This document shows, piece after piece, positions 1,436 to 62,363 of a stretch of 64,000 bases of DNA. A model generated the notes under the pieces. That model saw only the letters and a list, made by a program, of their open reading frames with translations, was not told where the DNA came from and made no database searches. A program made the position numbers and the translations under genes. The stretch is taken from NCBI GenBank assembly GCA_964437705.1, contig CAYTHX010000002.1, positions 16,916 through 80,915 on the forward strand, given 5' to 3'. The stretch comes from an uncultured Nitrososphaeria archaeon. GTDB lineage: Archaea > Thermoproteota > Nitrososphaeria > Geothermarchaeales > JDFR-13. Numbering within the stretch: the stretch's first letter is position 1; every line of letters starts with the position of its first letter.

Positions 1436-2221
1436 TTAATATGAGGATAGTATTCTTTGGACAAGTTGACTACATGTTATAAACTCAGCATTAACTGCAA
1501 TACCGAATTTGATTATTTCCTCAAGAGCACGTATATTTCTACCTCTTCCTATGAGCTGTGGATGCATGGTTACACATAAATATTTAGTAGTATCAACTGC
1601 ATATCTAATTTCTTCAATAATTCTCGTAGAGAAATCCTTTGGATCAAGCATCCTCTCCTTGAGTATTGGCCAATCATCTAATCTCCAGTCTATAGGCAAC
1701 TCAACTATCTTTTCTTCACTAACTTCTAAAACATACGGCTCATCATCATCCATCAAGCTACTATCATATCTATAGCCAAGATCTTTGATGTATTCTAATA
1801 CGTCTTTAGACATACGCCAATATGGCGCTCTAAAACCCTTGTAATCCTTAGGCATATAGTTAGACAATAGACTATCCATCTTATTAAGAATAGAATACTT
1901 GTCCTTTTCTAGGTCAAGTTTTTCATGTAAATATCCATGCGCACCAACTTCATGACCAGATTTAATGATGCTAGAAACCGCCTCTGGATAATTTTCGGCA
2001 ACCCATCCAGGTACAAAGAAAGTAGCTTTAACATCATACTCATTTAATACTTTAAGTACATTATATACTCCTTTTTTGGCCCCAAATTTGCCGTAACTTA
2101 ATTCAACAAACTCCGCCTTCTTATGTACCTCAGCACTTTCAGCGTCAAAATCAAATGTTAGCAATAAAAATAATGATTTACCTTCTTGAAGAAGATTCTT
2201 CATCATATTAACACTCACCAC
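1436..2221 (-). CDS. polysaccharide deacetylase (CE4 family)
   Basis: CE4-like motifs FFVPGW and GHEVGAHGYLH. 261 aa. Confidence 0.6.
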   Translation of the reverse strand: MVSVNMMKNLLQEGKSLFLLLTFDFDAESAEVHKKAEFVELSYGKFGAKKGVYNVLKVLNEYDVKATFFVPGWVAENYPEAVSSIIKSGHEVGAHGYLHEKLDLEKDKYSILNKMDSLLSNYMPKDYKGFRAPYWRMSKDVLEYIKDLGYRYDSSLMDDDEPYVLEVSEEKIVELPIDWRLDDWPILKERMLDPKDFSTRIIEEIRYAVDTTKYLCVTMHPQLIGRGRNIRALEEIIKFGIAVNAEFITCSQLVQRILSSY

Positions 2222-3513
2222 TAACTAAACCTATCAATTATATCGCTAATTAAACTTAATTTTGGTTCACCACTGCCAATCACTACAGCTCTATTAATCG
2301 GCCAGATTACATCAGCTACACGAGCAACTCTAAGCAGGAACTTAATACTATTTAGATCCTCCAGTTTTATTGAAGATGGTATTGGTATCGATATTGCATC
2401 TCCAATCCTTAACTTTTTTCCTGATAGATTAATTTCCTCATTATTAAAGTAAACCTTATCAACCAATAAGTTTCCAGATAAACACTTTAGTATTATCTTA
2501 TTATCTTCTAACGCTACTGAGATATACTTTGATAGATTAGGGCTCCATCCGTGAATATTCACTAAAACCTTATAGTTCATCGTACCTTTTTTAACATCAA
2601 ATATAGATTCAACAGGTATGATAAAGTCAACGTTATATATTGCTAGGTACTTTTGTGAGTATTCCCTAAGTATGCCGCTATAAAACCTCTTAGATCCATC
2701 TATATCATCTGCTAAAACTTTAACTAACTCACCTATACTAGCCTCCAATAATGCATTATAGGTAGCCCCGATATGTTTAATTGCTTCTTCTCCAACTTTA
2801 CTAACAGGCTTACCAACATCAACTGGACTAATACTGCTGACAGTTGCTGAAATATATCCTAAAGCTTCCTTTAATTTATCTTTTATAAGGCCTAGTAAGT
2901 TAGTTATACCTCTCACGAGTCTACGATAGATATTTGGATGATAGATTTTAGAGAGCTCTTTAGCTCTTTGAATTCTCAATATTTCAGGTAAATCGTCAAT
3001 AAACCTTACAATTGAAATTACATTTTTTAATGACTCTCTATAGACCTTCTTTGATGCTAACGGCTGATCATCAAATGGAGAATAATCCACATCTTCAAAA
3101 CTCTCCTTTTCAAACCCATATACTAGCTTATGTAATTTGGCTGCCCTCTCAAGATAAATTCTTTTTCCAGTCTCCCTATAAACCCTAACTAAATATCCAA
3201 TAATCTTATGCGGATTCTCAATATTACCCACCGGAAATAATATTTCGAACCCTCCAGAGGACCTAGTTGGAATAATCATTTTACCATAATAAGCTTCATT
3301 TACACCATCACCATCCTCATCAGTATGAAATAGTACAACCCAACTACCGCTAAATAACTTTATAACCCTATCCCTACTTATCCTATCGACAATCAGCAAA
3401 ATTATTACTACAATAATTAGTATAGTAAGGAGTACATAGACCAGTGGTAATATTTGATTTAATATTGAAGCATTTAGTAAATCTATGTTTTGTATAGTTG
3501 ACATTTTATTCAC
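2221..3513 (-). CDS. hypothetical protein with N-terminal membrane anchor
   Basis: Hydrophobic N-terminal segment (ILPLVYVLLTILIIVVIILLIV), then a soluble domain with no recognisable motif. Its stop overlaps the start of the downstream gene. Confidence 0.4.
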   Translation of the reverse strand: MNKMSTIQNIDLLNASILNQILPLVYVLLTILIIVVIILLIVDRISRDRVIKLFSGSWVVLFHTDEDGDGVNEAYYGKMIIPTRSSGGFEILFPVGNIENPHKIIGYLVRVYRETGKRIYLERAAKLHKLVYGFEKESFEDVDYSPFDDQPLASKKVYRESLKNVISIVRFIDDLPEILRIQRAKELSKIYHPNIYRRLVRGITNLLGLIKDKLKEALGYISATVSSISPVDVGKPVSKVGEEAIKHIGATYNALLEASIGELVKVLADDIDGSKRFYSGILREYSQKYLAIYNVDFIIPVESIFDVKKGTMNYKVLVNIHGWSPNLSKYISVALEDNKIILKCLSGNLLVDKVYFNNEEINLSGKKLRIGDAISIPIPSSIKLEDLNSIKFLLRVARVADVIWPINRAVVIGSGEPKLSLISDIIDRFS

Positions 3514-7858: not shown

Positions 7859-8182
<324 letters not shown>

Positions 8183-8240
8183 ATTTTTATAATTGTTCTT
8201 TCTTTTTTTACTTTCCTTTTTCTTAATTAAGCTTAAAGGG
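8183..8240 (+). terminator. T-rich tract, probable archaeal intrinsic terminator
   Basis: ttcttttctttttttactttcctttttctt immediately after the ferredoxin stop. Confidence 0.3.
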
Positions 8241-23837: not shown

Positions 23838-25517
23838 TTACTCAAATTCAGATTCTGGTTCAGGTCCTCCGCCTCTCTCCTTGCCTTTCTCTTCCTTTAG
23901 CTTAGAGGCTGCTATCAGGTCGTCAATTCTTAGTATCATTGCTGCTGCTTCTGTAGCTGACTTAATTATTTGTTCCTTGACAAGCAATGGTTCTAAAACT
24001 TCGTTCTTCATCATATCTTCGACTTTTCCTGTATATACGTTTACACCTGCCCATACTTCGTCATTAGCATGTCTGGCCTTTAGCTCGACTTCAATGTCAA
24101 TTGTGTCTAGTCCAGCATTCTCAGCTAGTGTTAGTGGTATGGCTTCTAGAGCTTCTGCGAATTTCTCAGCTGCTAGTTGTTCTCTTCCAGAGAGGGATGA
24201 CGCCCACTTTCTGATTACTCTAGCGGCTTCTGCTTCTGGAGCACCACCACCTGCTACAATAGCTGGCTTAATTAGTACGTCTCTGACTACACATAGAGCA
24301 TCATGGAGACTTCTCTCAGCTTCGTCAACTACTCTCTCGCTACCACCCCTTATTAGTATCGTGACTGATCTTGGATTCTTACATCCTTCAACAAATATCA
24401 TTTTATCTTCTTCAACTTTTCTCTCTTCAACTAATTCTGCCTCTCCTAGGTCAGCTTCAGATAAGTCTTCTAAGTTTGTAATTATTCTTGCTCCGGTAGC
24501 TTTTGCGAGCTTCTCCATATCTGACTGCTTAATTCTTCTAGCAGCTAGTATTCTTGCTTTGGCTAGGTAATGCTGAGCTATATCATCGATTCCCTTTTGA
24601 CAGAAAACTACATTTGCACCTACAGACTTAATTTTATCAACCATCTCTTTAAGCATCTTGTTCTCTTCTTCTAGGAATAATCTCATTTGTTCTGGTGATG
24701 TAATGTTGATTCTAGCGTCAAACTCTGTTTTCTCAATTTCAAGTGGTGCATTGATAAGAGCAATCTTTGCTTTTTCAATTCTCTTTGGCATTCCACTATG
24801 TACCACTTCCTTATCTAACACGATACCTCTAATTAACTGAGTATCTCTTATACTTCCACCAGGCTTCTTTTCGATTTTAACGTCATCAACATCAACTTTG
24901 ACTCTACCATCAACTTCCTCCTTAACTGTTAGTATAGCTTCAACGGCTAATTCAGCTAAGTACTCCTTATCAGTTGCAACTAGCTTTGAACCCATTGCTG
25001 TTGAAGCAATTTTCTTAAGTAGCTCTTTATCATTAGGATCGACCTTCTTAGCAATTTTATTTAGTGTTTCTAATGCCTTTTCTGCAGCTTTCTTATATCC
25101 ATCAATTATTATAGTTGGGTGGACATCTTTGTCAATTAGCTCGTCTGCTTTGTCAAGTAGTGCACCTGCCAGTACTACTACTGAAGTTGTTCCATCACCA
25201 ACTTCTGCGTCTTGAGCTTTAGCTAGCTCTACCATGATCTTAGCTGCTGGATGTTCAACTTCCATCTCTTTAAGCATCGTAGCACCGTCATTTGTAATTA
25301 CGACGTCTCCAAGACTATCAACTAACATTTTATCCATTCCTTTAGGACCTAAGGATGACTTTACAATATCAGCTACAATTTTGGCCGCTAATATAAGTCT
25401 TTTCTGAGCTTCTCTACCTTTACTTCTTGTGGTACCCTCTTTTAGTATTAGTATAGGTTGACCTGAAGCAGTAACTGCTGGGATTGCTGTGGCGGATGCG
25501 GTAGACATAGAAATCAC
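23838..25517 (-). CDS. ths: thermosome subunit (group II chaperonin)
   Basis: [25 protein letters not shown] and the GGGAPE motif. 559 aa. Confidence 0.95.
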
Positions 25518-59134: not shown

Positions 59135-59689
59135 TCATGGGATCTCATACTTCCTTAAGCTATTTTTATCTATTGTAATAAAATGACCCTCCGAGATATA
59201 GAGAATAGGCCTATAGTTTTCAACTTCCCAATGTGTAGTATACAGATTATCATCTTTAACATAAGCATCTACGACATCACCTATAAATAAGTCATGATCA
59301 CCAGTTTTAACCACATTTATAACTTTACACTCAACTACACCCAGCGCTTCCTTAACAACTACTATATTTAATTTTCTAGCCCTAGTTGGAGTTAACTTAA
59401 CAACTTTAAATTTATCATCATAATCCTTTCCAGATAAAGTACCAGCTAAATATACATTTTCAACGTACTTAAAGTCCATTATATTTATAGCAAACTCTCT
59501 ACTAGACTTTACAATACTATACGTAAACCTCTCTGGAGAAATAGCTACAGCGACCCTTGAAGGTACATACGATACAGGCATCACCCAAGCAGCAGTCATA
59601 ACAGCATTCTTACCATTAAAACTAGATGTTACTAAAACAGTTAATCCTGGCTGTATAAGTCTAATCTGATCAATCGTTATTGACTTCAT
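59135..59689 (-). CDS. flavin-reductase-like FMN-binding split-barrel protein
   Basis: 184 aa with a weak resemblance to the flavin reductase-like domain. Confidence 0.35.
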   Translation of the reverse strand: MKSITIDQIRLIQPGLTVLVTSSFNGKNAVMTAAWVMPVSYVPSRVAVAISPERFTYSIVKSSREFAINIMDFKYVENVYLAGTLSGKDYDDKFKVVKLTPTRARKLNIVVVKEALGVVECKVINVVKTGDHDLFIGDVVDAYVKDDNLYTTHWEVENYRPILYISEGHFITIDKNSLRKYEIP

Positions 59690-59867
59690 AGCTTACTCAA
59701 AACCAAATAAATACTGATGACAAAAAAAATAAAGATTACTTAATGGAAATTCGGATAATTCAAAGCAACATATCAATCCACCCCAATAAACTTGCTATAC
59801 TATAACAACCTCTCTTTATGTAACTTTTCCCTCTTTATCACTACTTTTACTTAATAATTCCTTTTTG

Positions 59868-59940
59868 TGGGTTTTTATAAAGGATTTAGGGACGCAAAGT
59901 TTATGTCTGAGGGACGCTGTCCAGAGGGTTTATAAAGCTA
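59868..59940 (+). promoter_or_regulatory. two TTTATAAA TATA-box-like elements
   Basis: tttttataaagg (59871-59882) and gtttataaagc (59927-59937), each preceded by G-rich BRE-like sequence, upstream of the GC-rich structured island. Confidence 0.3.
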
Positions 59941-60027
59941 ATATTTTATGGATGAGTCTGCCTAACCTCTGCTGGGCGTGGCGAGGAAATCGCGTAGTCA
60001 CGCTCAGTATGTTAGGTAGATGATTTT

Positions 60028-60223
60028 GCCCCTCATGTTGATCAGGTGGTCACGTGAGGGGAACTCACCCAGCCCCTCATAATCAGGTGGTTATGAGAGG
60101 TTTGGGTGGGGGGTTGGTTGGGGGATATAGCCCTTTGGGATGAAGCCTACATCAATCAGGCGGTTGATGTAGGTAGACTCACCCTACGCCCCTACAATCA
60201 GGTGGTTGCAGAGGCGTAGGGCG
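60028..60223 (+). repeat. four tandem imperfect hairpin repeats sharing the loop AATCAGG(T/C)GGTT
   Basis: Hairpins at 60028-60061, 60073-60100, 60146-60173 (perfect 10-bp stem CCTACATCAA/TTGATGTAGG) and 60187-60223. The linkers ACTCACCC (60063, 60177) and GGGTGGGG (60104) could pair with each other. Confidence 0.6.
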
Positions 60224-60375
60224 GGAGTCAACATACAGAGTACAAGGAGCAGAGTGTTAAAGTACAGAGTGTAGGAGTATGTGTCCCCCTCTCCAGACTA
60301 GATTTTGGGGGTAAAACCCCACCCTCCCAAAACTACGAGGGAGTGGGAGGGTAATTTCGGTCTGAGGGGAGAGGT

Positions 60376-60954
60376 ATGAGAAAAGCTCGAACAATTGAGG
60401 AATATCAGAAAGCACTAGAACTCCTCTATAAGTATAAATATAGTATACGGAAAGTGGCAAGAGAATTAAATATCCCGAGAACAACAATTCAACGTTGGCT
60501 CAAAGGTTCCAAACCAATACTATCATGGACACCAAAGCCAACACCAGAATTAGCATATGTAATTGGTGTATTGATGGGAGATGGACATTTACATCTACGT
60601 AAGAAAAACCACTATAGTATTGAACTAGAAGTTAAAGATTTAGCGTTTGCCTGTGAATTTAGTAGAACATTAGCAAAAGTACTCAATAAGCCATTTAGAA
60701 AACCATATTGGAGAAAAGATAGACATAGATGGACAGTATACTACTACTCGAAAGCATTCTACATATGGTTTAAGGAGCAAACCCTGAAAACATTAAAGAA
60801 GTATATAGAGCACGATAAAGAAACTGTTGGAGCATTCCTAAGAGGAATCTATGACTCAGAAGGAAGTAACTGGAGATGCAAAAGGATATCGGTATACAAT
60901 ACTAGTTTAATGCTTCTAAGGTATATCCAGTACCTATTAAATAAGGTATTTTAA
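60376..60954 (+). CDS. HTH + LAGLIDADG homing-endonuclease-like protein (I-DmoI-like), apparently truncated by a frameshift
   Basis: N-terminal HTH (RKVARELNIPRTTIQRWLKG), a first LAGLIDADG motif (LAYVIGVLMGDGHL) and a second (FLRGIYDSEGS). Confidence 0.65.
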   Translation: MRKARTIEEYQKALELLYKYKYSIRKVARELNIPRTTIQRWLKGSKPILSWTPKPTPELAYVIGVLMGDGHLHLRKKNHYSIELEVKDLAFACEFSRTLAKVLNKPFRKPYWRKDRHRWTVYYYSKAFYIWFKEQTLKTLKKYIEHDKETVGAFLRGIYDSEGSNWRCKRISVYNTSLMLLRYIQYLLNKVF

Positions 60955-61156
60955 TATTATTGCAAGAGGCCCATATGTGACAACTAGAGCAGGACAAAAA
61001 CGTATATGGAAAAACACGGTGTTTACAACGAGAAAAAACTGCTATACAATAGTAATCCGCAGAGGATTCTTCGTATACAAATTCCTAAAGGAAATAGGAT
61101 TCAGTATACCAAGAAAACAGCTAGGACTAAAGAAAATTAGAGACCTCTTGGGATAA
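60941..61156 (+). pseudogene. displaced C-terminal segment of the LAGLIDADG gene in the +1 frame
   Basis: In the other frame the reading continues IRYFNIIARGPYVTT...YTIVIRRGFFVYKFLKEIGFSIPRKQLGLKKIRDLLG to the TAA at 61154-61156. The segment is collinear with the I-DmoI C-terminal subdomain. Confidence 0.45.
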
Positions 61157-61207
61157 CCCCCCACCAACCCCCTTTTTCTCACACAGAAACAAAAAAATTT
61201 TTAACCC

Positions 61208-61224
61208 CCCCATATATAAGTAAT
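61208..61224 (+). promoter_or_regulatory. tRNA promoter TATA box
   Basis: catatataagtaat is centred about 25 nt upstream of the tRNA 5' end. Confidence 0.4.
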
Positions 61225-61236
61225 ATATACGGGTAG

Positions 61237-61337
61237 AGCCGGGTCGTCTAGCGGCCAAGGATCCCAGGCTCTGGATCGCCCCGTAAGGGGCTAGGGGAGC
61301 CCTGGGGACCCAGGTTCGAATCCTGGCCCGGCTACCA
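61237..61337 (+). tRNA. tRNA-Gln (anticodon CUG) with a ~25-nt intron after position 37 and encoded CCA
   Basis: Hand-folded cloverleaf. Acceptor AGCCGGG/CCCGGCU (A1-U72), discriminator A, CCA at 61335-61337. D-arm GUCU/GGAU. Anticodon stem CCAGG/CCUGG with loop CUCUGG and CTG at 61271-61273. Intron about 61275-61299, containing a CCCC-GUAA-GGGG hairpin. T-arm CCAGG-UUCGAAU-CCUGG. Confidence 0.75.
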
Positions 61338-61442
61338 ATCACTTCTCTTTATTTGAATGGAAGGATATAATACCTATTTGCTCAGGTAAGCTATTTTTAA
61401 AATAATTCCTTAAGGTAAATGATAGCTTATTATTTGGTTATA

Positions 61443-62363
61443 CTATATTTCTCTACTTTTTAGGGATATAAGTAGGTATTTTAATATATTCTTTGCTTCG
61501 TTATTGAGTGGTAATTGCTCTAGAATCTTTATTGCATTATCTATTTTCTGGGAAATCATTTGATTAGCGATTTTTAATGCTTCATCTATATTGATGTTGT
61601 TTTCTTTACATAAGATTCTAACTAGATTTGGTTTGTTTACATCATGGTTAACTGGTTTTCCTAGTATAGACTTATCACCAATTATATCTAATACATCATC
61701 TCTAAATTGGAAGGCATAGCCGAGTTCTTTACCGAACTCTCCAAAGATTTGTAGGGATTTTCTGTCTATACCTGCTAGCATTGCACTAACTCTGGCGATA
61801 TGTTCAAAGTATGATGCTGTTTTAAAATAGACGATATCTAGGTAATCATCAATATTTATCGACTGATTTTCCAGTTCTAGTGATTCCCCCATACACATCT
61901 TTATCCCTGCATGTAAAATCTCTCTTATAATTTCACCACTTAATTCGCTAGCTATATAATTCGACATTAATATTAGTGCGTCTCCAGCTAAAATAGCCAA
62001 CTCCTCACCATATTGCTTATGTACAGACACGGTACCTCTGCGAAAATCTGACCTATCAATAATGTCATCATGAATTAGAGAAGCTGTATGTCCAAATTCT
62101 ATCGCTACAGCAAGTCTTAATGACCTTTCATTTTCGACACCTAATCCCCTACTTATTAATAAGCTTAGTAACGGTCTAATAAGTTTCCCTTTACCAATTA
62201 AGTGAGATACAGCTGATTTTAGGATACCATCTAACGGAAATTTATTTAAATGGAAGTTTAGTGCTGATAATATCTCGAGAATATAATTGATGATCGTATT
62301 TCTATATTTATCGCTAATATTTTCAAGGTTAAGTAAACGTCTAAATGGCTCTGGTATTTGCAT
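61443..62363 (-). CDS. polyprenyl diphosphate synthase (geranylgeranyl diphosphate synthase-like)
   Basis: First and second aspartate-rich motifs (LIHDDIIDRSDFRRG and FQFRDDVLD). Confidence 0.85.
   Translation of the reverse strand: MQIPEPFRRLLNLENISDKYRNTIINYILEILSALNFHLNKFPLDGILKSAVSHLIGKGKLIRPLLSLLISRGLGVENERSLRLAVAIEFGHTASLIHDDIIDRSDFRRGTVSVHKQYGEELAILAGDALILMSNYIASELSGEIIREILHAGIKMCMGESLELENQSINIDDYLDIVYFKTASYFEHIARVSAMLAGIDRKSLQIFGEFGKELGYAFQFRDDVLDIIGDKSILGKPVNHDVNKPNLVRILCKENNINIDEALKIANQMISQKIDNAIKILEQLPLNNEAKNILKYLLISLKSREI

Follow-up and report, generated by a model that had tools for sequence, protein, structure and literature searches.

The GC-rich island that precedes a homing endonuclease gene in the 64,000-nt stretch of DNA analysed here (the window) is, with a probability of roughly 0.55, the structured 5' untranslated leader of a mobile-cassette mRNA of ~1.2 kb that encodes an I-DmoI-like HTH-LAGLIDADG endonuclease. 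Judged from their sequences, the island, the ORF and a C-rich 3' arm belong to a single cassette (Table 1), and cassettes of this type, with a related folded RNA, adjoin tRNA genes in numerous thermophilic archaea. All positions are those of the window, and L-numbers (L001 etc.) are labels of the related loci that were compared. The RNA spans 430 nt in the window and more than 1 kb in relatives.

Table 1. Features of the cassette and of its tRNA-proximal flank, in window positions.
Feature	Position	Strand	Basis or remark
TATA box TTTATAAA, likely cassette promoter	59929-59936	+	conserved in relatives
Conserved motif ATATTTTATGGATGA	59941-59955	+	between TATA box and hairpin A; aligns to R1 positions 1-8
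Hairpin A (hpA), 5'-terminal	59956-60021	+	fold; 26 pairs including 5 G.U
Hairpin 1 (hp1), tip GAUC-AGGU-GGUC	60029-60061	+	aligns to R1 hairpin
Hairpin 2 (hp2), tip AAUC-AGGU-GGUU	core 60073-60100, extended 60064-60110	+	CUCACCC/GGGUGGG pairing lengthens stem
G-rich 5' arm	60109-60128	+	90% complementary over 20 nt to 61153-61172
Hairpin 3 (hp3), tip AAUC-AGGC-GGUU	60145-60174	+	perfect 10-bp arms 60146-60155 / 60164-60173
Hairpin 4 (hp4), tip AAUC-AGGU-GGUU	core ~60187-60216, extended 60177-60229	+	ACUC/GAGU lengthens stem
ORF-proximal three-way junction	60286-60374	+	CCUCUCC (60288-60294) pairs with Shine-Dalgarno-like GGAGAGG (60368-60374)
HTH + double-LAGLIDADG homing endonuclease gene	60376-61156	+	Pfam LAGLIDADG_3, HTH_23
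C-rich 3' arm	61153-61172	+	pairs with 60109-60128; just past stop codon
TTTTT, likely archaeal terminator	61173-61177	+	read from sequence; directly after 3' arm
AT-rich motif ATATATAAGTAATATATA (also given as ATATATAAGNAATATATA)	61212-61229	+	between cassette and tRNA
tRNA-Gln(CUG) gene, 25-nt intron	61237-61337	+	Rfam tRNA model 43.6 bits; aragorn -i

The GC content is ~50% at 59950-60375 compared with 35% across the window. In 200-nt windows it was 0.49-0.53 over 59900-60399, versus 0.29-0.375 on the flanks and a window mean of 0.346. A minimum-free-energy fold, which the earlier note had proposed as a check, gave -206 kcal/mol for a 440-nt island stretch, far more stable than its shuffles (-150 ± 6 kcal/mol; z -8.9; none of 100 shuffles equal), so that the structured GC-rich island described there was borne out by both measures. 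A control GC-rich spot at 7900-8200, which lies in a Cys-rich ORF, yielded a fold z-score of only -0.7. The island had also been thought to lack a known RNA family, and this held: no Rfam 15 family matched it at gathering thresholds in a scan of the whole 64-kb window, only tRNA and chance-level matches were obtained at E<=10 over 59600-61700, and group I and II intron families matched neither the window at E<=10 nor eleven related loci at E<=0.01. Blastn of the leader found no second match within the 64 kb, unlike a dispersed palindromic repeat of the REP/MITE type, of which many scattered copies would be expected. Box C/D or K-turn motifs were defined as RUGAUGA plus CUGA forming tandem sheared G.A pairs beside a closing stem; three GAUGA copies each lie immediately 5' of a hairpin and hairpin A is followed by GA, while no closing C-stem could be drawn and Rfam snoRNA matches were at chance level. 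A CRISPR array had been discounted before, and rightly: only the 12-nt hairpin tips repeat, their starts are unevenly spaced (41, 73 and 42 nt), and the sequence between them consists of hairpin stems and linkers, not of unique spacers.

All four hairpins that had been described previously were recovered in place, preceded by a larger fifth one, hairpin A, by which the count of four has to be extended. Their shared 12 nt, formerly taken for a common loop, are indeed a conserved motif, but they form a conserved 4-bp stem tip (A-U, A-U, U.G, C-G) capped by an AGGY tetraloop and not an open loop. AATCAGGYGGTT occurs in exactly three copies in the 64 kb, all of them inside the island, and the fourth tip copy, GATCAGGTGGTC, sits in hp1 and carries two compensating changes. 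The tips end in tetraloops in the window versus pentaloops in relatives, which puts the pairing register off by one column in a joint single-hairpin alignment. The linkers that had been proposed to pair over long distances are present as well, ACTCACCC at 60063-60070 and 60177-60184 and GGGTGGGG at 60104-60111; however, the ACTCACCC copies pair locally, lengthening hp2 and hp4, and the long-range helix is formed by the G-rich and C-rich arms. The 5' halves of the hairpins are duplicated at a distance of 115 nt, and a strain variant (L002) is without ~115 nt that carry hp2, the G-rich arm and hp3. The four hairpins thus look like two copies of a two-hairpin unit, although Tandem Repeats Finder did not report a 115-nt period.

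Relatives at ~50% protein identity have the same layout, in which a TATA box, a 5' hairpin, two or three hairpins with related tips, a G-rich arm, the ORF, a C-rich arm and a T-run follow each other. In the helices of these relatives 97.9% of the cells are paired. Within an alignment of only four independent sequences, compensatory changes were detected at 24 of 63 base pairs, compared with 9.3 ± 2.2 in shuffled alignments (0 of 500 reached 24) and 1-7 in slid controls; the counterpart of hairpin A (helix 1) contributes changes at 7 of its 11 pairs. There were 45 G.U versus 3 A.C cells, and the opposite-strand reading of the same helices was only 83% paired. The compensatory changes and the excess of G.U over A.C indicate that the sense-strand RNA is the selected entity. 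In five elements the sense strand folded more stably than the antisense strand every time (-203/-166, -139/-99, -159/-150, -146/-100 and -106/-86 kcal/mol).

These data bear directly on the proposal, raised in the earlier note, that the repeats are a protein-binding array. In such an array, double-stranded DNA would offer operators or recombination sites to a host factor or to the endonuclease's HTH, and the hairpins would be incidental. The 12-bp motif is present in four direct copies with the start distances given above, the protein bears a transposase- or resolvase-type HTH, and ATATTTTATGGATGA, conserved between the TATA box and hairpin A, could be an operator; moreover, I-TevI represses its own promoter. 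However, the flanking stems vary among the copies yet remain complementary, and 24 pairs are compensated in orthologues. The strand asymmetry in G.U and A.C cells is unexpected for a duplex site, and the U.G pair of the tip would be a C.A mismatch on the opposite strand. An array of this kind is considered improbable.

To compare the window with its relatives, a covariance model (R1) was built from L087, L088, L090, L091 and L093, and the window sequence was left out. R1 matched the island at 59948-60123 on the plus strand over its full length (model positions 1-182 of 182; 37.1 bits, E 2.4e-10), and this was the sole match on both strands of the 64 kb. Both features by which the HEG-leader RNA family was defined, a full-length R1 match and a G-rich/C-rich arm pair with a T-run, are thus found in the window. 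A novel structured RNA, as suggested before, is consequently upheld in the form of a conserved, covarying sense-strand structure without an Rfam family. The earlier note had named missing conservation, missing covariation or an Rfam hit as arguments against it; conservation and covariation are present and the Rfam match is absent.

Could the island nevertheless be GC-rich by chance, a product of misassembly or a repeat in decay, in each case without selected structure? Of the six metagenome contigs with the neighbouring gene, five break off within the island or at its edge, and the endonuclease gene is already frameshifted in this strain, both of which would fit such an origin. On the other hand, the same island sequence is found at 98-100% identity in independent assemblies, and the contig ends coincide with strain indels and differences in hairpin copy number. 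Since chance is excluded by the z-score of the fold, by the covariation and by the match to a covariance model built independently, we consider this explanation negligible.

The 200 nt upstream of the ORF were unusually structured (z<=-3) at 7 of the 12 loci with close homologues and at 16 of the 64 with distant ones, whereas ORF-internal windows reached this threshold at 0 of 12 close and 2 of 64 distant loci. No GC-rich leader is present in L171, L172, L007 and L092 (45-49% protein identity), which implies that the endonuclease does not need the leader.

In the predicted transcript, a 5' and a 3' segment are connected by the long-range helix between the two arms. It was present in the minimum-free-energy fold of the 1228-nt predicted transcript at 75 °C, and compared with shuffles its z-score was -5.2 in the window and -5 to -8.5 across the window, L088-L091 and L168-L170. 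Pairing was scored with an 18-nt 3'-arm query, as RNAduplex runs of the whole 500-nt leader against a 130-nt tail over-extended and were uninformative. The cognate arm was the best partner in four of six elements, the window included, with a mean of -31.2 kcal/mol for cognate versus -24.7 kcal/mol for non-cognate arms. C-rich arms that match the G-rich arm of their own element were found in L087-L093 and L168-L170, and a C-rich stretch followed by a T-run past the stop codon is recurrent across the family. L167 is without a G-rich arm, while L168 has one; the losses in L002 and L167 mean that the long-range helix and the second unit are dispensable or that these copies are decaying. Pairing of the arms would close a thermostable RNA core from which the ORF protrudes as a loop, an arrangement shared with endonuclease ORFs in introns.

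This intron-like layout, with the ORF between paired 5' and 3' segments, and the fact that the closest solved relative of the protein is I-DmoI, which is encoded within an rRNA intron, raise the question of whether the cassette is the relic of an archaeal bulge-helix-bulge or group I intron with an I-DmoI-like endonuclease that landed outside a gene. A relic of this kind had been listed in the earlier note. Here a bulge-helix-bulge motif was defined as a 3-nt bulge, a 4-bp helix and a 3-nt bulge at the junctions, together with an interrupted host gene. Instead, the helix is interrupted only by a single 1-nt bulge and a single mismatch, Rfam group I/II matches are absent even at E<=10, and the cassette has a conserved TATA box and a T-run of its own. 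The orthologous empty site is a 150-nt spacer in which no gene is interrupted. The same organisation at many tRNA-flanking sites argues for a maintained design and not for a one-off relic, and an intron origin is thus very improbable.

For the leader reading that we prefer, the position of the promoter is essential. Two TATA-like boxes had been noted upstream of the island, and TTTATAAA was indeed located at 59874-59881 and 59929-59936. The latter is the conserved one and lies at equal distance upstream of hairpin A in L087, L088, L091, L093, L169 and L092. Based on the usual archaeal spacing between TATA box and start, transcription is predicted to begin at ~59956-59960, which would be ~25 nt past this box at the foot of hairpin A. 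ATATTTTATGGATGA, of which L088 and L090 have near-identical copies and L087, L091, L093, L169 and L092 very similar ones, represents either a DNA element close to the promoter or the very start of the RNA at its 5' end. In the window clade, neither a TATA-like box nor a T-run of at least 5 nt was seen between the hairpins and the ORF. The island reaches from the conserved TATA box to the start codon, and a covarying helix links it to the 3' UTR, a position that agrees with the structured leader of the LAGLIDADG gene considered before. Directly upstream of the start codon, the two inner hairpins of the three-way junction are kept in L167-L170 (82% DNA identity over 52 nt). For the Shine-Dalgarno window a pairing probability of 0.88 was obtained, compared with 0.58 ± 0.17 in 40 control ORFs, which places it above their 90th percentile, whereas values of 0.36-0.60 in L088, L091 and L093 are within the control range. 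Sequestration of the Shine-Dalgarno sequence was rejected as a general mechanism because it fits only part of the family.

The gene downstream of the leader is predicted to encode an I-DmoI-type LAGLIDADG homing endonuclease with an additional N-terminal HTH. LAGLIDADG_3 (PF14528) was matched with an E-value of 6.5e-11, and the best matches in the PDB were I-DmoI chains (E 2e-8, profile positions 66-213). Both LAGLIDADG motifs were found (GVLMGDGHL and LRGIYDSEGS); D69 of the first motif, like D160 and G163 of the second, does not vary among 21 sequences, whereas the Glu of the second motif does. The gene is frameshifted in this strain by a 1-nt insertion near 60947, which splits it into the ORFs 60376-60954 and 60977-61156. 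The window allele accordingly stops after 192 of 259 residues and its frame is not intact; an intact 259-aa allele is present in L001. As in I-DmoI and the archaeal intron-encoded monomeric LAGLIDADG enzymes, there are two motifs per chain, and as in I-DmoI-type systems a GC-rich RNA carries the ORF as a loop that is closed by 5'-3' pairing. Unlike I-DmoI, the window gene is free-standing outside an rRNA intron, with its own promoter and terminator, lies beside tRNA genes behind a 430-nt leader of repeated hairpins, is without a bulge-helix-bulge splice motif and encodes ~50 extra residues with the N-terminal HTH. LAGLIDADG domains are joined to an HTH in WhiA as well, and a weak Pfam LAGLIDADG_WhiA match (E 0.008) was obtained below the cut-off. 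WhiA, a bacterial protein that is not known to be mobile, has a C-terminal HTH and has lost catalysis, whereas the present protein has its HTH at the N-terminus and retains the acidic residues in both LAGLIDADG motifs.

As mobile DNA, still active or formerly so, the cassette settles next to tRNA genes, presumably by homing. A tRNA gene lies within 250 nt of 12 of 13 close homologues, related cassettes adjoin tRNAs of at least nine isotypes, and one contig carries two paralogous cassettes beside different tRNAs. At the orthologous locus L177/L178, which comprises polyprenyl synthase, tRNA-Gln and flavin reductase, the cassette is absent and tRNA-Gln and flavin reductase are only ~150 nt apart, with no host gene in this spacer. 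The cassette thus combines presence/absence polymorphism at an orthologous locus with paralogous copies elsewhere, by which we define a mobile cassette. tRNA-Gln is a resident neighbour, as its orthologue is also found at L177, where the site is empty. When the window flanks were aligned to L177, scores were no better than those of shuffles and insertion junctions were not found. Within the 1.12 Mb of DNA that was compared, the AT-rich motif ATATATAAGTAATATATA is confined to four distinct loci, always between cassette and tRNA. In the window it occupies the place where the TATA box of tRNA-Gln would be expected. A display, in the hairpin loops, of the codon that the adjacent tRNA reads would suit the window (CAG, Gln) and L088 (AGG, Arg), but it was rejected because of mismatches in L093 (Pro), L091 (Ile), L087 (Trp) and L167 (Phe). 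In viral contigs only distant LAGLIDADG relatives (<=30% identity) were found; a scan of these contigs for two spaced tips was far too permissive (at least 120 unrelated matches) and was disregarded. The host had been assumed to belong to the Sulfolobales, which is contradicted by a thermosome 89% identical to its counterpart in a Candidatus Geothermarchaeota MAG.

It is also possible, though rather unlikely, that the island acts as an RNA in its own right, either as a stable ncRNA or as the core of an RNP mobile element, and that the ORF is merely lodged in one of its loops. The 5'/3' helix loops the ORF out in the way endonuclease ORFs are carried by structured RNAs, and the conserved tips with their U.G wobble suggest specific recognition. 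A related 5' module was found in clades whose proteins are only ~34% identical (L142, 23.5 bits, E ~3e-5). In this distant clade (L142, L157) a GC-rich stretch of ~1.1 kb ends at its own C-rich run and T6-T7 before the ORF and its leader, and by its sequence it looks like an independent RNA rather than a leader. In addition, RF02984 (DUF3800-X) matched directly upstream of the LAGLIDADG ORF in L122 (44.1 bits), L150 (40.3 bits) and L157 (46.3 bits), above the gathering threshold of 38.2; this orphan motif without assigned function belongs to a class judged likely to be self-functional (Weinberg et al. 2017, PMC5737381). The core of DUF3800-X, GGAUGAUG-hairpin-GAUGG, resembles GGAUGA-hairpin A-GAU(U)GG of the window family. 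However, the GGATGA motif of the window may precede the transcription start, and DUF3800-X spans 73 nt compared with the 430-nt domain in the window. DUF3800-X did not match the window even at E<=10, and no DUF3800 gene was seen near the loci that bear it. Against an independent RNA in the window clade speaks that no terminator or promoter was seen between the hairpins and the ORF, that natural variants delete large parts of it and that it matches no ribozyme or intron family. The empty site, moreover, is without RNA and without ORF, so the RNA has no independent locus.

According to the leader reading, the RNA would fold into hairpin A followed by four hairpins arranged as two two-hairpin units, each with a variable stem below the conserved tip AAUC-AGGY-GGUU and its U.G wobble. 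The three-way junction would come next, with the Shine-Dalgarno sequence paired within it, and the G-rich segment between the units would pair with the C-rich segment past the stop codon, directly before the terminating U-run. Such an RNA may act in cis, protecting both ends of the mRNA at high temperature and restraining or timing the expression of a potentially toxic endonuclease, and the conserved tips may be contact points for a protein, possibly for the endonuclease itself. Phage homing endonuclease genes (I-TevI; T4 seg and mob) are throttled by RNA hairpins or autorepression, and some phage endonuclease genes sit among tRNA genes. The cassette resembles them as a selfish endonuclease gene with a cis RNA structure at the ribosome-binding site and a dose-restricting logic. 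However, the phage enzymes are GIY-YIG or HNH proteins from another domain of life and are controlled by single short hairpins, whereas here a 430-nt multi-hairpin domain and a 1-kb closing helix are found and sequestration of the Shine-Dalgarno sequence is clear in only a part of the family. Hgc RNAs are high-GC ncRNAs of AT-rich hyperthermophiles that were found by GC-content screens, and here, too, a GC-rich island in an AT-rich thermophile genome flags a structured RNA. Unlike them, the window RNA is attached to a protein ORF and to mobile DNA, and it matches no Rfam Hgc family.

Homing endonuclease genes are usually described inside introns and inteins, or as free-standing genes in phages, and no description of the present cassettes was found in the literature searched. 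The cassettes suggest that free-standing archaeal LAGLIDADG genes travel with a large covarying RNA of their own and settle beside many kinds of tRNA. They add an RNA family that is absent from Rfam, and LAGLIDADG genes provide a gene context for the orphan Rfam motif DUF3800-X. More speculatively, and in our view doubtful, the RNA and the HTH-LAGLIDADG protein could constitute a previously unrecognised class of archaeal mobile element in which the RNA is a working partner, either as an RNP with the endonuclease that aids recognition or integration beside tRNA genes or as a new self-processing RNA. If the RNA is merely a stabilising leader, it would be a tidy new example of a known theme. The cassettes raise the question of how a protein-only endonuclease so consistently flanks tRNA genes, and of what an RNA of 0.4-1 kb gives to a selfish gene of a hyperthermophile, be it survival of the mRNA, control of dosage or something more active.

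The island, a GC-rich non-coding stretch at about 59950-60375, was analyzed together with the gene that follows it. GC content over 59900-60399 was 49-53% (200-nt windows) compared with 29-37% on either side and 34.6% in the whole window, confirming the GC-rich patch in AT-rich DNA that the earlier note had pointed out. The four tandem hairpins described there (hairpins 1-4) were found in place, as were two TTTATAAA TATA-like boxes upstream, and a larger hairpin (hairpin A) lies 5' of the four hairpins. All three exact copies of the motif AATCAGGYGGTT in the 64 kb lie inside the island; hairpin 1 has a fourth that differs by two pairing-preserving changes (GATC...GGTC). The supposed 12-nt loop is really a stem tip with a tetraloop, four conserved pairs (A-U, A-U, U.G, C-G) closing AGGY. 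The linkers, ACTCACCC twice and GGGTGGGG, are present, but the long-range pairing suggested for ACTCACCC is local instead: it pairs with GGGUGGG and with GAGU, lengthening hairpins 2 and 4, and the real long-range helix is the closing helix listed in the table. Copies of the hairpin 5' halves are spaced 115 nt apart, and the four hairpins resemble a duplicated two-hairpin unit; Tandem Repeats Finder reported no 115-nt period. GATGA repeats stand just 5' of hairpins 1 and 3 (60019 and 60139).

In the minimum-free-energy fold that had been proposed as a check, the 440-nt stretch reached -206 kcal/mol compared with -150 +/- 6 for dinucleotide shuffles (z -8.9). Since a control GC-rich patch (7926-8175, GC 0.53) was unstructured, with z values of -0.7 and +0.2, GC content alone does not produce the fold signal. 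This patch, the window's other one of comparable GC, is a 105-codon Cys-rich, ferredoxin-like ORF. At gathering scores no Rfam family matched in the whole window, and at E<=10 the locus matched nothing except a tRNA, in agreement with the first reading, which had been unable to match it to RNase P RNA, SRP RNA, rRNA or C/D-box or H/ACA sRNAs; no Rfam family covers the island.

Coordinates of features in the window and in loci holding homologues (L-numbers)
Feature	Locus	Position	Strand	Remark
Thermosome gene	window	23838-25517	-	89% identity to Candidatus Geothermarchaeota MAG ex4572_27
Flavin reductase gene	window	59135-59689	-	flanking gene
Hairpin A	window	59956-60021	+	larger than, and 5' of, hairpins 1-4
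Hairpins 1-4	window	60029-60061; 60064-60110; 60145-60174; 60177-60229		
Closing helix	window	60109-60128 with 61153-61172	+	20 nt, 90% complementary, spanning the entire ORF
HTH and double-LAGLIDADG gene	window	60376-61156		directly downstream of island; Pfam LAGLIDADG_3 (E 6.5e-11) and HTH_23
C-rich 3' arm	window	61153-61172		begins at stop codon
TTTTT	window	61173-61177		immediately after C-rich 3' arm
AT-rich motif	window	61212-61229		
AT-rich motif	L167 and L168; L169; L170; L094	3899; 3897; 1337; 516		
tRNA-Gln(CUG) gene	window	61237-61337	+	25-nt intron; 60 bases past TTTTT
Polyprenyl synthase gene	window	61443-62363	-	flanking gene
GC-rich (65-70%) hairpin-dense stretch	L142; L157	~1450-2610; ~1440-2557		AT-richer context, apparently non-coding
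DUF3800-X (RF02984)	L122; L150; L157	2692-2760; 2720-2789; 2688-2759		above gathering score; directly upstream of LAGLIDADG ORFs
ORFs after cassette (Peptidase_M19 half, Cas4 and Cas1 entry)	L157	3817-4362; 4551-5156; 5460-6431		

Conservation and covariation, likewise proposed as a check, were analyzed on an alignment of five relatives that excluded the window. Two-sided changes were obtained in 24 of the 63 consensus pairs (97.9% of cells paired), with only four independent sequences behind these counts, compared with 9.3 +/- 2.2 for shuffled columns (none of 500 shuffles reached 24) and 1-7 pairs when partners were slid by 1-3 columns. The earlier note had also considered a protein-binding array, in which the repeats would act as a double-stranded DNA operator. 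This is contradicted by specific tests, as the helices hold 45 G.U cells against 3 A.C or C.A cells and the conserved tip U.G becomes a C.A mismatch on the opposite strand, both of which favour RNA over duplex DNA. Read as sense RNA, the same helices are 97.9% paired; read as antisense, 83.2%. The sense strand gave the better fold in all elements tested. Together these patterns show selection for an RNA structure on the sense strand. A chance patch and the relic of a mobile intron, the latter suggested at first reading, were contradicted by specific tests as well. When a covariance model built from these five relatives (R1) was searched against the 64-kb window, a single full-length match was obtained at 59948-60123 (+) (37.1 bits, E 2.4e-10). 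R1 also detected L170 (24 bits) and the start of the GC-rich region of L142 (23.5 bits), whose protein is only 34% identical.

The downstream gene encodes an N-terminal HTH followed by two LAGLIDADG motifs. Its closest solved relative is I-DmoI (E 2e-8), a homing endonuclease encoded by an intron in archaeal 23S rRNA. The window allele is frameshifted by a 1-nt insertion near 60947 (TTAAATAAGG compared with TTAAAAAGG in L001, a 98.9% identical metagenome contig with an intact 259-residue gene). Because alleles truncated to 192 or 126 aa recur across several independent assemblies, the frameshift is real decay and not a sequencing error, and the endonuclease gene is decaying in this population. 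Several metagenome contigs break within the island, at strain indels or hairpin copy-number differences. The tRNA-Gln(CUG) gene was missed by default ARAGORN and the window-wide Rfam gathering scan and was found only with laxer filters or aragorn -i. The host had been taken for a member of the Sulfolobales; its thermosome, 71-73% identical to those of Nitrososphaeria MAGs, places it in Candidatus Geothermarchaeota (Nitrososphaeria).

Close relatives of the protein are few, with 23 among 5.8 billion clusters. Among homologue loci taken from genome and metagenome collections, the closest (L087, L088/89/90, L091, L093 and L167-170; 45-55% protein identity, on low-GC thermophile contigs) keep the order TATA box, ATATTTTATGGATGA, 5' hairpin, two or three hairpins with related tips, G-rich arm, ORF, own-matching C-rich arm and T-run. 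Tips are alike within an element and related between elements (AAUC-AGGY-GGUU in the window, AAUCC-UAGAC-GGGUU in L088, AUCGC-CUGGW-GUGGU in L091), L167-170 carry a different repeated hairpin (CCGG-CAAAG-CCGG), and an ORF-proximal three-way junction is common to the window and L167-170. The element ATATTTTATGGATGA, located between TATA box and first hairpin (59941-59955 in the window; also in L087, L088, L091, L093 and L169), is conserved even in L092, a locus lacking a GC-rich leader, and may be an operator or promoter-proximal element. Structured upstream regions (z<=-3) were found in 7 of 12 close homologues and in 16 of 64 distant ones, compared with 0 of 12 and 2 of 64 for ORF-internal windows; the RNA is therefore a frequent, not an obligatory, companion of the gene.

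For the predicted 1228-nt transcript at 75 C, the minimum-energy structure pairs 60109-60124 with 61158-61172. Scored against shuffled leaders, the 18-nt 3' arm gave z values of -5 to -8.5 in the window, L088-L091 and L168-170. Arm sequences vary among elements, and the cognate arm was the best partner in four of six (mean -31.2 compared with -24.7 kcal/mol for non-cognate arms). Distant homologues keep the C-rich stretch and T-run (e.g. AACCCACCCCTTTTT), and a partner was mostly not detected there in the 18-nt 3'-arm search. L002, a strain variant, is shorter by ~115 nt (hairpin 2, G-rich segment and hairpin 3), a loss that arose by recombination between the ACTCACCC repeats. As both L002 and L167 are natural variants missing the G-rich arm, the closing helix is not indispensable, or these copies are decaying. 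The best-supported reading is that the island is a cis-acting mRNA structure.

A rival reading, in which the RNA can be transcribed separately and may have a role beyond mRNA protection, appears unlikely; a stronger version, with RNA and protein making up a novel type of mobile RNP, is more doubtful still. The former is favoured by the distant clade (L142 and L157), where a ~1.1-kb GC-rich stretch starts past its own TATA box and ends at its own C-rich run and T6-T7, before a further 240-nt ORF leader. This stretch is a candidate large structured RNA, with no Rfam match besides DUF3800-X further downstream. Also in its favour, the proximal leader in L122, L150 and L157 matches DUF3800-X, an orphan motif near DUF3800 genes for which no function was proposed (Weinberg et al., 2017; PMC5737381). 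The L157 ORFs that were scanned included no DUF3800 gene, so the name may reflect a neighbouring mobile-element gene and not the true partner. Of Peptidase_M19, the L157 ORF right after the cassette (the unit of leader RNA, ORF and 3' arm) matches the C-terminal half alone (profile positions 155-319), so that gene may have been split by the cassette or by a larger element; Cas4 and Cas1 genes follow.

At an orthologous site in a related genome (L177 and L178; flavin reductase 69% identical) the gene order is the same, the cassette is absent and tRNA-Gln(CUG) lies ~150 nt from the flavin reductase gene. Insertion junctions could not be mapped by aligning the flanks to this empty site, the flanks being too diverged. 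The ORF is followed within 250 nt by a tRNA gene in 12 of the 13 distinct loci at >=44% protein identity and in 20 of the 62 at 30-44%. These 32 tRNAs comprise many isotypes, and 30 are on the opposite strand, tail to tail; the rare same-strand cases include the window and L105. In L172 the ORF runs into sequence antisense to tRNA-Asn. The 28-kb contig Ga0190367_1000509 carries two paralogous cassettes ~7 kb apart (L168 and L169; proteins P0002 and P0003), beside tRNA-Phe and tRNA-Ala. A DUF87/TrwB-like ATPase and an Eco57I-like N6 methyltransferase next to them suggest an integrated plasmid-like region. Within 1.12 Mb of fetched DNA, four distinct loci alone have an 18-nt AT-rich motif, [AT]TATATAA[AG]NAATATATA, always between cassette terminator and tRNA, whichever the tRNA strand. 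This motif may mark the end of a cassette, or it may be a homing site or a promoter/terminator in shared use. Long G/T-rich low-complexity tracts (TTTTGGTTTTTGGTTTG...) occur 5' of cassette-neighbouring tRNAs in L007, L092, L094, L170 and L172, and a complementary A/C-rich tract upstream of the cassette in L167 (2482-2720).

Free-standing homing endonuclease genes and structured leaders are known kinds. Full-text searches of open-access papers found neither HTH-LAGLIDADG cassettes next to archaeal tRNA genes nor the leader RNA of such cassettes described; the combination, the size, the closing helix and the tRNA-flanking habit are not known.

As a cis-acting mRNA structure, the island would present a 5'-terminal hairpin followed by a stack of very stable hairpins, and the closing helix would anchor the 3' end, as far as the U-run, to the leader, with the ORF looped out of a closed core. 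The conserved tips suggest that a factor may be bound. Predicted pairing probabilities for the Shine-Dalgarno region are 0.73-0.88 in the window, L087, L167 and L169, and in the last two the start codon is predicted to be paired as well. Values for L088, L091 and L093 (0.36-0.60) fall within the control range (0.58 +/- 0.17), so translational masking is not general. In a hyperthermophile, such a closed structure would shield both mRNA ends against exonucleases, and it could limit or time translation of a DNA-cutting enzyme.
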